Notes: generated by a model from the letters alone, not told the origin. DNA of 64,000 bases from Nitrospira sp. SG-bin2 (GCA_002083405.1 LVWT01000045.1:17637-81636), one strand, 5' to 3'; positions 12,177-25,192 are shown, counted from the first letter of the stretch. Translations and numbers: made by a program.

Positions 12177-12551
<375 letters not shown>

Positions 12552-12742: not shown

Positions 12743-14152
12743 ATGAACGTGCGAGAAGTGTTGGAGTTTGCCAAGAAGCACAGGGTCCAGATGGTGGACC
12801 TGAAGTTCGTGGACCTGCCGGGAGTGTGGCAGCACATGACCATCCCTGTGAGCGAACTGACGGAAGATCTGTTCAAGGACGGCTCCGGCCTCGACGGGTC
12901 CTCCATTCGTGGCTGGAAGGCGATCAACAACAGTGATCTGCTGATGGTCCCCGATCCCGCGACGGCCTGTCTGGATCCCTTCACGGCAGTGCCGACGCTC
13001 AGCCTTACCGGCAATGTGGTGGACCCTATCTCACGCGAGAATTATGAGCGTGACCCCAGGTTTATTGCCCAGAAGGCGGAAAAGTATCTTCAAAGCACCA
13101 AGATCGGTGACGCATCTTTTTGGGGGCCTGAAGCCGAATTCTTCATCTTCGACCATGCCCGCTACGATCAGACCAGCAACAGCGGGTACTACTTTCTCGA
13201 TTCCGAGGAAGGCGCATGGAACATGGGGCAGGAGGGATTCAATTTGGGCGGCAAGCTCCGCCACAAGCAAGGCTACTTCCCTGTGGCTCCCGCGGATACG
13301 CAACAGGATATCCGCAGCGAAATGGTTGTCGAGATGGAAAAGGTCGGCATCGTTGTTGAGAAGCATCATCACGAAACGGCATCGGCCGGCCAGGCTGAGA
13401 TCGATATTCGGTTCGACTCGCTGGTGAAGACGGCGGACAAAATGATGATGTACAAATACATCGTCAAAAATGTGGCCCGCCGGCATGGCAAAACCGCGAC
13501 GTTCATGCCGAAACCGCTGTTCGGCGACGCCGGTTCCGGCATGCACACTCATCAGAGTATCTGGAAAGAAGGGAAGCCCTTGTTCGCCGGTAAGGATTAT
13601 GCGGGTGTGTCACAGATGTGTTTGCATTACATCGGTGGGATTCTCAAGCATGCGCCGGCGCTGGCGGCTTTTACCAATCCGACGACCAATTCATACAAGC
13701 GGATCACGCCGGGATTCGAAGCGCCGGTGTTGCTCGCCTATTCCAGCCGAAATCGGTCGGCGGGGATCCGTATCCCGATGTATTCGCCCAGTCCGAAGGC
13801 CAAACGGATTGAAGTACGGTTTCCTGATCCTGCCTGCAATCCCTATTTGGCGTTCGCCGCGATGCTCATGGCCGGCCTCGACGGGATTCAGAATAAGATT
13901 GATCCGGGCGAACCTGCCGAAAAAGATCTGTACGATCTTGACCCCAAAGAGGCGGCCAACATCAGAACGATGCCCGGGAGTCTTAATGAAGCGATCGACA
14001 GTCTGGAAAAAGACCATCAGTTTCTCCTTAAGGGAGAGGTCTTTACAGAGGATTTGATCGAAGCCTGGATTGGCTATAAGAGAAATAAAGAGATCGATCC
14101 GATGCGGCTTCGCCCGCATCCCTATGAGTTTTTCCTCTATTACGATGTCTAG
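12743..14152 (+). CDS. glnA: Glutamine synthetase type I
   Basis: 469 aa with [19 protein letters not shown]. The adenylylation-loop Tyr context KDLYDLDP is retained. Confidence 0.95.
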
Positions 14153-20977: not shown

Positions 20978-23242
20978 TTACAGCGCGCCGAACATTCGTT
21001 CGAAAAAGGCCTTGGTGAGCGTCATATGTTGCGTGATATCCGTCTGGAGATGCCTGGCCCCAGCTTGCCAATCATCCGTCGTATAGCCCACCCGTCGCGC
21101 CAGGAAGATAAACTCATCTGAATCAGTCGGGGGAAGAACGCGGTCTTTGGCGTTGCCCCGGACCATCCGAAGGCCGTCGATGAGCATCCGGATGAAGAAA
21201 TACGCCTTGCGTAAATTCTCGCCGTCCGGTCTCGTGACAATCCCGCACTCGACGAGCCCGGCGAGCGCCTGCATCGTGTTGGGTGTGCGTAACACGGAGC
21301 GCGTATGGCCGTGCATGATTTGGAGGTATTGCACGGCATATTCGATATCGACGATTCCGCCCGGACTGTACTTGAGGTTGACCGTGCCATGCTCTACCAG
21401 TTGCTTCAGTTGCTGCCGGCGCAGGTCCAGGGCGACCGCGATGTCCCACGGGGTTCCACTGTAGACATAGGCGTCACGATGGGCTTCGACACGTTTGCCC
21501 AGGGCTGCATCGCCCGCCACATGCCGCAGTTTGATCAAGGATTGCCGCTCGAACGGAGCGGCGAGGCCTGCGTCACTGTAATACCCGATGATTTCGTCGA
21601 ACGGATTTGTCAGAGAGCCTTTGCCGCCGTGGGGACGGAGGCGCACGTCGAGATGGAAGATCCCCTCCTGTCTGGACTCGATCCACTGCAGCAGCTCCTG
21701 CCCTAGGCGTTCGAAGTATTCACTGTTGTCGATGGCCTGTTTGCCGCCGGTACGCCCTGCGTCGCCGTAGACGAACAGGACTTCGATATCGGAGGCATAG
21801 CCCAGTTCACGGCCGCCGAATTTGCCCAACCCAAGAATCGTGAAGGGACAGGGTTTCTTATTGGCCAAACGCGGAGGGCCGTAGAGCTTGTTTAATTTGG
21901 CCTGGCAGTCCTTCAGGCTCCGGTCCACGATCACTTCAGCCAACTGGGTGAGCGCGCCGGAAAAGTCGGCCAGCGCGATCCCCGGCTCGACGATGTGCTT
22001 CATGTCGATACGAAACAGCTCGCGGTCCTTAAAGGTGTTCAAGGCGGTCTTGCGCGCGTCGGCGGTTTTGGCCTGGCCCACGAAGCGATCAATCTCTCTG
22101 CGGAGTGATGTTCGAGGCTTGGCCAGCGGGGCGTCACGATAGTCCTGCAGGAGCGGCAGGAGGTTGGTGTGTTGCCGGCGCAGAAAGTCTTCCCAGAGAA
22201 AGTCGCTGGTGCCGAGTAAGCGGGCGAGGAGCGGAAACGTTTTTTTGTCGCTGAGCAGCGCAAGGGCCTGCTGCTGGGCCTTGCCTTTCGTCCCTTGCAC
22301 GATGAGGTCGAGGAACTGGTCGAAGGCTTCGAGGGCTTTGGTCGGGTCCGGTGCCCAGGTCAACGCATGGGTGAACTGCTTGATGAGCACGGCTGTCAAG
22401 CGCAACTGTTGCTGATCGGTCGGATCGGTCAGCTTCTGCCCGTAGCGATTGCGGACATAGAAGCGGTCGTGCAGCTTGGCGTCCTCGATGTCGATTTGCG
22501 CTTTGGAGATATAGACATTGCGCATCGCGAGCGCGTTGGCGAAGGCGTAAAGAAACGCGGGGGTATCGTCTGATCGGATGTCCATAATCGTGTCTGTCTG
22601 AGACTGGCTGTTGTCGAAGGTGATTTGGACGGGATGGAGCAGGCCGCTGAAGGACCCGCGGCGCCGGCCGAGTTGTTCGACCAGCCGTCGATTTACCGCA
22701 TGGCGGGCTTCTTCGAACTGGTTCGTGTCGAGCAGGCCGATGACGGAGCGCAGCTCCTGCGCAAGCCGGTTCTGTTCAACCGGTCCGAACGAGGCGCCGT
22801 GAACCGGTTGGACGCGGAAGATGTCGACGATTTTCTTGCTGCTCAGCCCCGGCCGCACATGTGGACGCCGGCGCGGACTTTCATTGTAGGAGGCTTTGGC
22901 TGGTTTGGCCGATGCGGCTTCGGCGAACGTATAGATTTGGCCTTCTTCGATGTTTAATCCGAAGGAGGATAGGAGGCCGCAGATGGTGGCGAATTCGGCA
23001 AAATAGTCATAGGCGACGATGGTCACATCGGCACGGCCTCCCTGTTGTTCGGTGATCGAGAGTTCGCAGAGATGGTCCGGCGTCAGTTGAGCTGCCAGAT
23101 GAATGTGCCTTGCAATGGCGGTTGGATCGACTCGCCGGAAATATTCCTGATCCATTCGGCTGATAAAGTCGTGCAAAATGTCGGACGGGACGTCCTGGCA
23201 GTGAGACGTGACGGTCCGGAGAATCTCTTCGCGGTTGTCCAT
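20978..23242 (-). CDS. ACT-ACT-GlnE fusion: glutamine synthetase adenylyltransferase-type nucleotidyltransferase with two N-terminal GlnD-like ACT domains
   Basis: 754 aa from the ATG at 23242. ACT-like segments are ADVTIVAYDYFAEFATICGLLSSFGLNIEEGQIYTF and TIMDIRSDDTPAFLYAFANALAMRNVYISKAQIDIEDAKLHDRFYV. These are followed by the GlnE NTase motif GLGKFGGRELGYASDIEVLFVY and a GlnE C-terminal helical domain. Confidence 0.8.
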   Translation of the reverse strand: MDNREEILRTVTSHCQDVPSDILHDFISRMDQEYFRRVDPTAIARHIHLAAQLTPDHLCELSITEQQGGRADVTIVAYDYFAEFATICGLLSSFGLNIEEGQIYTFAEAASAKPAKASYNESPRRRPHVRPGLSSKKIVDIFRVQPVHGASFGPVEQNRLAQELRSVIGLLDTNQFEEARHAVNRRLVEQLGRRRGSFSGLLHPVQITFDNSQSQTDTIMDIRSDDTPAFLYAFANALAMRNVYISKAQIDIEDAKLHDRFYVRNRYGQKLTDPTDQQQLRLTAVLIKQFTHALTWAPDPTKALEAFDQFLDLIVQGTKGKAQQQALALLSDKKTFPLLARLLGTSDFLWEDFLRRQHTNLLPLLQDYRDAPLAKPRTSLRREIDRFVGQAKTADARKTALNTFKDRELFRIDMKHIVEPGIALADFSGALTQLAEVIVDRSLKDCQAKLNKLYGPPRLANKKPCPFTILGLGKFGGRELGYASDIEVLFVYGDAGRTGGKQAIDNSEYFERLGQELLQWIESRQEGIFHLDVRLRPHGGKGSLTNPFDEIIGYYSDAGLAAPFERQSLIKLRHVAGDAALGKRVEAHRDAYVYSGTPWDIAVALDLRRQQLKQLVEHGTVNLKYSPGGIVDIEYAVQYLQIMHGHTRSVLRTPNTMQALAGLVECGIVTRPDGENLRKAYFFIRMLIDGLRMVRGNAKDRVLPPTDSDEFIFLARRVGYTTDDWQAGARHLQTDITQHMTLTKAFFERMFGAL

Positions 23243-23329
23243 TGTGCAGGCAGTATACCGCAATGCCGTTCATTGTGTGAGAGGGAGCGCGCCAGTATAA
23301 TGCCGCGCCAGACGGAGATGGCGAGGAAC

Positions 23330-23357
23330 GTGAAACGTGAGGCGTGAAACGTGAGGC
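23330..23357. repeat. Heptamer-period repeat array (GTGAAAC GTGAGGC)x2
   Basis: GTGAAACGTGAGGCGTGAAACGTGAGGC lies in the divergent gap between the two GlnE-type genes. The same family occurs at 30894-30921 and, reverse-complemented, at 54835-54855. Confidence 0.75.
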
Positions 23358-25087
23358 GAAAGCCTGAGAAAGCCGGTAAGTCAGGATCACCGCCCGGGAA
23401 ACTGGTGCCGGGTTTACGGAGGGCATCGACCGGGCCTGATCCGACTCCCGTCTTGCTGGCTGAAGAGCGGAAGCCCGAGCAGATCCGAGCCATTTTATCG
23501 GCCTATGGATTAAGGAATATCGAACAGGCCGACCGCAATCTTGGCACGATGGCCGGGGAACCGCATGAGCGGCGTCAGTTGGCCGAGATCCTTCCACAGC
23601 TGTTAGCGGCCGTCGCGCGGACGGCCGATCCCGATCAAGCACTCAATCATTGGGAACGGCTGTTATCAAACGTGACCCGCTCATCCTTTCTGGACTATCT
23701 GCGCAGTTGGCCGCGCATGGTGGAGGTCCTCGCGACGATTTTTGGCAACAGTGATTCGCTGGCTTTCACGATCGTTCGCGATCCCATGCTGGTCTATTGG
23801 CTGGCTGAGGAATCTGTGCTCTCGAAGCCGGCAACCCGTGCCGACATTGAACAGTCACTGCAAAAGCAGCTGGCCAGGTTGACGGCGAAGGAGTTGAAAC
23901 TGGATGTGTTGCGCCGGGTGCGGCGGCGGGAGATGTTGCGGATTGGTGTGCGCGACCTGCTGCGCATGGCCGACGTGCCGGAGACCATGGCAGCCCTCTC
24001 CGATTTGGCCGGTGCCTTAATTCACGCAGCCTATCAGGTGGTGGATGCGGACTTGCGCTCCCTCTACGGCGTTCCCATGCATAAGAACCGGCGGGGGAAG
24101 TGGGTGGAGACCGGCTTTGCCGTGATGGGGATGGGGAAACTCGGCGGTCATGAGCTGAATTACAGCTCCGACGTTGATCTGATCTACGTCTACGCGTCGC
24201 ATGAAGGAGAAACGAGGGCCCTGCGCGGAAAGCCAGCCGGGAAGCCGGCGGGTGCCGGTATTTCCAGCGAGGAATATTTTGAAATCCTCTCGCGCGAGCT
24301 GACCAAGGCGCTGGTCGAACAGACCAGAGAGGGGTACGTCTTTCGTGTGGATCTGCGTCTGCGGGCCGAAGGGTCCGTCGGGCAGTTAGCCCGCTCGCTG
24401 GCGGATTACAAAAAATATTACGAGACCAGAGGCATGGCGTGGGAACGATTGGCGCTCCTGAAAGCCTGGCCGGTGGCAGGGTCGACGGCGGTGGGGCAGG
24501 CGTTCTTGAAAATGGCCAGGCCGTTCATTTTTGGCGTGGGGAAGATGGATTGTGATGGAGCGCTGGCGATCGTGCAGAATGTGCGGGCGGTGAAGGAGAT
24601 GATCGATGCGAAGATGGCCGAGCGCGGCCATGAGCGGCGCAATGTGAAGCTTGGAATCGGTGGCATCAGGGAGATCGAATTTCTCGTGCAGACGGTACAG
24701 GTGTTGGCGGGGAGGCAGGCGCCGGCGCTTTTCGACCGCAGCACGCTCGGGGCGCTGCCCCGGTTTGTGACACGCAGGCTGCTCTCGGGCCGGGAGCGTG
24801 ATGAGCTGACGGCGGCGTATCTCTTTCTACGCGATGTCGAGCACAAGCTTCAGATGGTCCATGACCTCCAAACCCATGCGCTGCCGGATGAGACGGAGGA
24901 GTTGGAGCGTTGCGCCATCCGTGGGGGCTACGACGGCAGCGATCGGACTGCTGCCGTGAAGAAGTTCCTGGCGGATCATGCGGCCCATACGGCTGCCGTG
25001 CACCGGGCGTTTCAGTCGCTCTTCTATGAACCTACTACGTCGTCGGTATTCAAAGCGACTCTTCGGGTCATGGGAGCGAAGGGCTGA
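23351..25087 (+). CDS. glnE: GlnE-type glutamine synthetase adenylyltransferase/adenylyl-removase, single nucleotidyltransferase module
   Basis: 578 aa with the NTase motif GMGKLGGHELNYSSDVDLIYVY and GlnE helical domains. The start is uncertain because the GTG at 23351 lies inside the repeat array. Confidence 0.8.
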   Translation: MRRKPEKAGKSGSPPGKLVPGLRRASTGPDPTPVLLAEERKPEQIRAILSAYGLRNIEQADRNLGTMAGEPHERRQLAEILPQLLAAVARTADPDQALNHWERLLSNVTRSSFLDYLRSWPRMVEVLATIFGNSDSLAFTIVRDPMLVYWLAEESVLSKPATRADIEQSLQKQLARLTAKELKLDVLRRVRRREMLRIGVRDLLRMADVPETMAALSDLAGALIHAAYQVVDADLRSLYGVPMHKNRRGKWVETGFAVMGMGKLGGHELNYSSDVDLIYVYASHEGETRALRGKPAGKPAGAGISSEEYFEILSRELTKALVEQTREGYVFRVDLRLRAEGSVGQLARSLADYKKYYETRGMAWERLALLKAWPVAGSTAVGQAFLKMARPFIFGVGKMDCDGALAIVQNVRAVKEMIDAKMAERGHERRNVKLGIGGIREIEFLVQTVQVLAGRQAPALFDRSTLGALPRFVTRRLLSGRERDELTAAYLFLRDVEHKLQMVHDLQTHALPDETEELERCAIRGGYDGSDRTAAVKKFLADHAAHTAAVHRAFQSLFYEPTTSSVFKATLRVMGAKG

Positions 25088-25192
25088 TCGAGGCTGAAAC
25101 GGATACGAAACACGAAGGCCCCGGCGGTCTCCCGCCGGGGCCTTCATTTCCGACTCCGAGCTATCGGCCATACGCCATCAGCTCTTCGTTTC

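Follow-up and report, generated by a model that had tools for sequence, protein, structure and literature searches.

Two divergent single-module GlnE genes in Nitrospira sp. SG-bin2, one of them joined to a GlnD-type pair of ACT domains

In Nitrospira sp. SG-bin2, the two nucleotidyltransferase modules that canonical GlnE carries in tandem in one polypeptide, for adenylyl removal (AR) and adenylyl transfer (AT) on glutamine synthetase (GS), are found one per protein in two divergent genes. The pair lies in a 64,000-nucleotide stretch of DNA (GCA_002083405.1, LVWT01000045.1:17637-81636; hereafter the window) from a 3.66-Mb genome that is 99.85% complete, and a genome-wide search identified these as its only PF03710/PF08335 genes. 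The two are probably a split and rewired GlnE system acting on the sole type I GS (GSI) of the genome, in which a 754-aa protein would be an AT enzyme with an ACT-type glutamine sensor and a 578-aa protein the AR enzyme. Control of GS by adenylylation is a textbook cascade known almost wholly from work on Proteobacteria and Actinobacteria. No description of the present architecture was found in the literature on GlnE with ACT domains, on split GlnE or on glnE and glnD of Nitrospira. The two genes, and the domains of the first, are as follows, in window positions and with the supporting evidence in brackets.

20978-23242, minus strand: ACT-ACT-GlnE-module gene, 754 aa (open reading frame (ORF) and translation, Pfam and NCBIfam matches, AlphaFold2 (AF2) model, rooted tree)
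23069-23242, minus strand: helical lead-in, residues 1-58, matching the GlnD segment before ACT1 (AF2, BLAST)
22727-23068, minus strand: ACT domain 1, residues ~59-172 (AF2, VIA match, hidden Markov model (HMM) match to GlnD ACT1)
22355-22630, minus strand: ACT domain 2, residues ~205-296, holding TIMDIRSDD...HDRFYV (AF2, Pfam, VIA, HMM match to GlnD ACT2)
21485-22228, minus strand: GlnE-type nucleotidyltransferase domain (PF03710, E 5.4e-40)
20990-21388, minus strand: HEPN-like substrate-binding domain (GlnD_UR_UTase, PF08335), including R692 (PF08335, E 3.5e-16)
23351-25087, plus strand: single-module GlnE gene, 578 aa, putative AR enzyme (ORF and translation, Pfam, tree)

A first-pass annotation of this DNA had proposed that GlnE is split over two divergent genes, and this is borne out by the presence of one PF03710 plus PF08335 module in each protein. 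PF03710 scores 137.8 bits in the minus-strand gene and 211.9 bits in the plus-strand gene against a cut-off of 24, and PF08335 scores 59.9 and 95.3 bits, respectively, against a cut-off of 21; in the plus-strand protein the two domains follow one another at residues 126-387 and 413-558. Each protein is matched by only one half of the NCBIfam GlnE models, and the best equivalog scores of the two (194.9 against 625 and 352.4 against 487) lie below the cut-off. The motifs quoted in the annotation were all recovered from the translations, GLGKFGGRELGYASDIEVLFVY and the TIMDIRSDD...HDRFYV stretch from the minus-strand protein and GMGKLGGHELNYSSDVDLIYVY from the 578-aa plus-strand protein. The minus-strand open frame spans 20978-23263, with the ATG at 23242 (MDNREE...) as its likely start, and residues are numbered from this ATG unless the upstream TTG at 23263 is named. 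In this numbering the catalytic residues of the minus-strand protein are G473-K-x-G-G477, S484-D485-x-E487 and D532, which are invariant in 43 homologues. The second catalytic motif reads SSDVD in the plus-strand gene and ASDIE in the minus-strand gene; G-K-x-G-G, S-D-x-[DE] and the third acidic D are conserved across all three module classes described below.

Profile comparisons indicate that the N-terminus of the minus-strand protein is a GlnD-type ACT pair, whose two members are homologous, in the same order, to the two ACT domains at the C-terminus of GlnD. In GlnD, the ACT domains mediate glutamine control. Positions 613-842 of the GlnD model TIGR01693 match residues 16-281 (23-288 from TTG 23263) with an E-value of 7.8e-24; the score of 83.9 bits, against an equivalog cut-off of 519.4, comes from the ACT region only. 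An HMM of residues 1-295 matches the C-termini of six Nitrospirota GlnD proteins, and the three matches inspected each fall into two collinear pieces, ACT1 then ACT2 (E 1e-13 to 1e-19). The same HMM matches E. coli GlnD with an E-value of 1.3e-9. BLAST aligns residues 17-105 (24-112 from TTG 23263) with residues 654-742 of E. coli GlnD (E 2e-6). In Pfam, the second domain aligns with PF24931 (ACT_ACR9_3rd) at 25.2 bits (E 1.8e-5; residues 213-288 in TTG 23263 numbering), a score slightly short of the cut-off of 27. No HD family was found among the Pfam matches of the minus-strand protein at E <= 1.

Structure prediction points the same way. An AF2 model built from a 43-sequence alignment (mean predicted local distance difference test score (pLDDT) 86.9; predicted template modelling score (pTM) 0.79) shows a helical lead-in, then two beta-beta-alpha-beta-beta-alpha units and then the GlnE module; a single-sequence AF2 model was discarded for its pLDDT of 35.5. 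The lead-in has predicted helices at residues 2-12, 20-29, 32-37 and 40-51. ACT1 has predicted strands at 59-65, 71-78, 96-105 and 137-146 and helices at 83-93 and 154-172, with a low-confidence loop at 106-136, while ACT2 has strands at 205-210, 218-225, 244-253 and 256-264 and helices at 230-240 and 274-296. Searched against representative structures, the model matched the ACT region of aspartate kinase (Z 12.3, model residues 1-289), the regulatory domain of E. coli threonine dehydratase (IlvA; Z 8.6, residues 67-285) and CASTOR2 (Z 7.7, residues 58-291). Single-domain matches by VIA were to the ACT-like domain of GL3 (Z 6.6, root-mean-square deviation 1.9, residues 59-169) and to that of maize R (Z 6.0, residues 204-288). 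The pair is thus predicted, in a confident model, to adopt two ACT folds. The earlier claim of two GlnD-like ACT segments at the N-terminus is therefore upheld by profile (HMM and TIGR01693) and by predicted structure, the profile search having returned ACT matches where a failure to do so would have spoken against the fusion.

The same unit occurs well beyond this genome. A search of 1.84 billion representatives returned 10,029 relatives, and layouts were taken from the best 150, nearly all of which hold the whole ACT-ACT-module unit. Among these, the unit stands alone in 35 representatives, is followed by a second module (ACT-ACT-module-module) in 64 and is preceded by one (module-ACT-ACT-module) in 32. 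At least five phyla have it, either on its own or with an AR-like module fused ahead of it or behind it, and cluster names place it also in Anaerolineae (Chloroflexota), Chitinivibrionales (Fibrobacterota), Lentisphaerota and Spirochaetia. Homologues at 77-97% identity are named Nitrospira, the closest being from Nitrospira sp. ST-bin4; the database names of ACT-type proteins vary, and include 'ACT domain-containing protein' and 'glutamine synthetase adenylyltransferase'. Among the best 80 loci of a contig scan, all of them from Nitrospiraceae, 72 keep the divergent pair and the remainder are mostly interrupted by contig ends; a second family within the order has the pair as well. This phyletic survey shows the ACT-ACT-GlnE architecture to be widespread, and the ACT fusion is not peculiar to SG-bin2. 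Canonical fused GlnE occurs in other classes of the phylum Nitrospirota, and none was found in five Nitrospirales genomes that carry the split pair. Stop-to-stop ORFs of ~1240-1310 aa in three Nitrospirota genomes (L027-L029) had been considered as ACT-extended GlnE and were rejected: no ACT match was found in them, and they proved to be canonical GlnE. In the sister family, two genomes carry an ~838-aa ORF with a weak GlnE-domain match of 34-44 bits (G088:C1:1225690-1226283 and G120:C1:2191051-2191647), a third nucleotidyltransferase that is absent from the SG-bin2 genome.

For the assignment of AR and AT roles, 274 modules were cut out, among them the modules of canonical GlnE (two per protein) from E. 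coli and from 13 further Nitrospirota genomes. Unrooted trees (FastTree on all 274 modules; IQ-TREE in quick mode on 81) contain three monophyletic classes, namely ACT-linked, canonical C-terminal (AT) and AR-like. Into the AR-like class fall the N-terminal modules of canonical GlnE, the plus-strand 578-aa protein and, from every fused ACT protein, the module that is not linked to the ACT pair. The ACT-linked clade has a support of 100 in the Shimodaira-Hasegawa approximate likelihood-ratio test (SH-aLRT) and lies outside the AR-like clade (SH-aLRT 93; FastTree 0.97). A rooted tree was computed with IQ-TREE under the site-heterogeneous model LG+C20+F+G4, with seven GlnD N-terminal regions as a distant outgroup (stem of ~3.7 substitutions per site). 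In this tree the ACT-linked modules group with canonical AT (ultrafast bootstrap (UFBoot) 98, SH-aLRT 97), and the plus-strand-type modules are sister to the AR modules of canonical GlnE, of which one alone comes from outside Nitrospirota (UFBoot 92, SH-aLRT 90). One signature column agrees with this grouping: 98% of AR-like modules have Q there, and R occupies it in 94% of AT modules and in every ACT-linked module (100%). The minus-strand protein has R692 at this column and the plus-strand protein has Q501. The strongest argument for the ACT-linked module as the AT counterpart is complementarity. Every two-module protein consists of one AR-like module and either a canonical AT or an ACT-linked module, and the ACT-linked module is partnered with an AR-like one in 64 of 64 ACT-ACT-module-module and 32 of 32 module-ACT-ACT-module proteins. 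A canonical AT module was never seen beside the ACT-linked unit, and the ACT pair is absent from all 15 sequences classed as canonical GlnE by layout. The plus-strand AR protein is nearer, with moderate support, to the AR halves of canonical GlnE (nearly all of them Nitrospirota sequences) than to those of the fused ACT forms, a hint that the split pair may have a mosaic origin and not have come from one fused gene by simple fission.

The presumed substrate and its companion regulator are encoded in the same window.

12743-14152, plus strand: glnA, sole GS gene of the genome, presumed substrate (Pfam, with one PF00120 match genome-wide; E. coli GlnA alignment)
12213-12551, plus strand: glnB (PII), directly upstream of glnA (PF00543 match at C45:29849-30166)

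The GS shares 55% identity with E. coli GlnA and has Tyr399 (EKDLYDLDP) at the aligned position of the Tyr that is adenylylated in E. coli, as expected from the annotation, which had remarked that the adenylylation-loop Tyr (KDLYDLDP) is kept. The PII beside glnA, one of four PII genes in the genome, retains the T-loop Tyr51 that is the uridylylation site (...RGQEY51TIEF). No GlnD was found in this 99.85%-complete genome, where TIGR01693 finds nothing better than the ACT region of the 754-aa gene itself; PII would therefore not be uridylylated. The only other GlnD-like ACT match in the genome is a weak one (E 1.5e-5) in a 727-aa ORF (L004, G000:C57:50221-50427). The genome carries amoA (contig C4:38617-39324), and SG-bin2 is thus a comammox (ammonia-oxidising) Nitrospira.

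The absence of GlnD follows the comammox lifestyle. A full GlnD is present in seven of seven sister-family genomes and 11 of 18 Nitrospiraceae genomes; within the genus, only four of the 11 genomes besides SG-bin2 have one. All five full-GlnD genomes that were checked directly also carry the split pair. amoA was found in each of five GlnD-less congeners tested and was not found in four of five GlnD-bearing genomes tested; G077 has a partial amoA together with a partial GlnD. In six comammox genomes tested, SG-bin2 included, GlnD was not found. A review places glnD in a nitrogen-assimilation cluster of canonical Nitrospira, a cluster that clade A comammox organisms do not have (PMC6311188). The loss of GlnD is secondary and tracks comammox, and the ACT fusion is older than this loss and did not arise as a replacement for GlnD.

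In the mechanism proposed here, the nucleotidyltransferase/HEPN module of the 754-aa protein would AMPylate Tyr399 of GS. Its ACT pair would act as an allosteric sensor, most likely for glutamine, turning the AT on when nitrogen is plentiful, and the 578-aa protein would strip AMP from Tyr399 by phosphorolysis. The assignment of AMP addition and removal to the two proteins, the choice of GS as target and that of glutamine as ligand are inferences. Direct sensing of glutamine has been described for canonical GlnE, where it takes place in the C-terminal half, in the part that runs from the central region through the AT domain (bioRxiv 10.64898/2026.09.02.748916). The ACT pair occupies the position of this glutamine-responsive part, which lies just before and within the AT module, and, as canonical GlnE already senses glutamine directly, the pair would be a different sensor and not a new capability. 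With GlnD missing, the genome would have no other detectable glutamine sensor of the GlnD type. A more tentative proposal, which we consider possible though doubtful, is that in GlnD-less comammox organisms the GlnD-PII-GlnE relay has collapsed into one glutamine-sensing ACT-ACT-AT enzyme that acts without a PII modification signal, with a free AR enzyme resetting GS. Many relatives have the same pair together with a full GlnD, so the ACT fusion is not explained by GlnD loss, which is a point against the mechanism given at the start of this paragraph.

Assignment of the ACT-linked module to the AT side is favoured on the present comparisons, and it is not statistically secure. The results that weigh against it also bear on another explanation, in which both modules are AR-type or functionally equivalent, that is, paralogues of the same chemistry that differ in regulation. 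The AR half of E. coli GlnE gives both proteins a higher score than the AT half (132 bits against 109 with the minus-strand protein, 191 against 135 with the plus-strand protein), and the AR structure 1v4a likewise scores above the AT structure 3k7d, with 121.7 against 102.2 for the minus-strand protein. The NCBIfam GlnE models align both proteins to their own N-terminal half, and the AF2 model of the minus-strand module gives a near tie between 1v4a (Z 40.4 over 419 residues) and 3k7d (Z 38.5). In the unrooted trees the three classes join at a single node, at which the AT or AR affinity of the ACT-linked class is undecidable. A grouping of ACT-linked with AR-like modules is not rejected by the approximately unbiased (AU) test (delta lnL 6.8, p 0.157), and the ACT-linked and AT clades are both on long branches, so that attraction between the two is possible. 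The scan of signature columns found few that discriminate: only one strong column (R/Q) supports the AT side, the others are weak or contradictory, and three weaker columns agree with AR. The second catalytic acid of the minus-strand module is Glu and not Asp, a conservative replacement of D-x-D by D-x-E. Against the idea of two AR-type modules, the rooted tree (98/97) separates what would otherwise be simple paralogues, the plus-strand module going with AR and the ACT-linked one with AT, with the AU probability given above. Moreover, the ACT-linked modules form a clade of their own (SH-aLRT 100) outside the AR-like one and share R692 with AT modules, and each fused relative joins one ACT-linked and one AR-like module just as canonical GlnE joins AT and AR. 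AR halves also evolve more slowly, so a higher raw AR score is expected for any GlnE-like module. We therefore regard two modules of the same chemistry as unlikely.

The identity of the target and that of the ligand can be weighed in a similar manner. The GlnD-type ACT pair, the retention of Tyr51 by PII in a genome without GlnD and the naming of a homologue in one NCBI record as '[protein-PII] uridylyltransferase family protein' could suggest that the ACT-ACT protein modifies PII at Tyr51 in place of the missing GlnD, and not GS, with its partner removing the modification. However, the catalytic module belongs to the GlnE family, the GlnD model covers the ACT region only, GlnD N-terminal regions are a distant outgroup to these modules and an HD domain was not found in the minus-strand protein. 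Furthermore, among the sister-family and Nitrospiraceae genomes that have a full GlnD, the five checked carry the pair and have no canonical GlnE, which implies that the pair takes the slot of GlnE and not that of GlnD. PII as the target is accordingly very improbable. Less remote, and about as unlikely as two AR-type modules, is a GS adenylyltransferase whose ACT pair senses another amino acid or 2-oxoglutarate, or serves in oligomerisation only. ACT pairs bind many different ligands, and the nearest structures sense Thr/Lys, Ile/Val and Arg (aspartate kinase, IlvA and CASTOR, respectively). We know of no residue-level glutamine site in the ACT domains of GlnD. On the other side, the best and sole significant ACT relatives by sequence are the ACT domains of GlnD, matched in order over both, and it is these domains that are established to mediate glutamine control in GlnD. 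The pair also sits at the glutamine-responsive part of canonical GlnE. An AT enzyme under glutamine control, paired with a free AR enzyme, thus remains the preferred interpretation.

The two genes are separated by a short intergenic region, for which the annotation had given a 108-bp head-to-head gap.

23243-23350, no strand: divergent intergenic region, 108 bp, with a 14-bp unit twice just before and over the GTG (sequence)

The plus-strand GTG at 23351 lines up with the ATG of Nitrospira homologues, and conservation starts ~25 residues downstream. This start-codon alignment supports the 108-bp gap (23243-23350) as real. The gap contains a single weak sigma-70-like site (9/12 matches) for the minus-strand gene, and no sigma-54 consensus was found in it. 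The 14-bp unit GTGAAACGTGAGGC occurs twice in tandem at 23330-23357, ending over the GTG start; given the alignment of this GTG, the repeat would lie at the extreme 5' end of the plus-strand gene or in its leader. Where the AR gene and groEL converge, a GC-rich 16-bp hairpin lies between their ends, at 25112-25147, and resembles a bidirectional terminator.

An understanding of this gene pair may be of interest in several respects. A key group of nitrifiers appears to carry a rewired control of GS, with separate on and off enzymes and a GlnD-type ACT sensor on the likely "off" enzyme. In comammox organisms without GlnD, nitrogen sensing at GS would have to run without uridylylation of PII, and this bears on how comammox Nitrospira balance the assimilation of ammonium against the oxidation of ammonia. 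If true, the collapsed relay would be a minimal GS switch, independent of PII uridylylation, in organisms adapted to very low ammonium. To our knowledge, the glutamine site of GlnE-type enzymes is still unmapped; if the ACT pair binds glutamine, it would provide a defined sensor domain for an enzyme of this type. Separable AT-only and AR-only enzymes would also be handy for biochemistry.

Compared with canonical GlnE (E. coli ATase, 946 aa; structures 1V4A for AR and 3K7D for AT), both Nitrospira proteins have the same GlnE nucleotidyltransferase plus PF08335 HEPN-like module. The genome likewise has one AR-lineage and one putative AT-lineage module, and nearby it encodes PII and a GSI that keeps the adenylylation Tyr. 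However, the modules are on two polypeptides from divergent genes, and two GlnD-type ACT domains precede the AT-lineage module in place of the central linker/regulatory region. The latter module also has D-x-E instead of D-x-D and forms a long branch apart from canonical AT. With GlnD (TIGR01693; E. coli b0167), the minus-strand protein shares the combination of a nucleotidyltransferase-HEPN module and an ACT pair, its N-terminal 290 residues being homologous to the C-terminal ACT1-ACT2 region of GlnD. The domain order is reversed, the ACT pair standing at the N-terminus here and at the C-terminus in GlnD. The Nitrospira protein also has no HD domain, and its nucleotidyltransferase is GlnE-type and not GlnD-type. 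A third comparison is with the ACT-containing GlnE fusions of ~1200-1300 aa (e.g. P0130, Anaerolineae), which have the same ACT-ACT-module unit at 33-48% identity over the whole 754 aa. Those proteins carry the AR-like module on the same chain, ahead of the unit in 32 representatives (AR-ACT-ACT-AT) and behind it in 64 (ACT-ACT-AT-AR), whereas in Nitrospira sp. SG-bin2 it is encoded by a separate, divergent gene.

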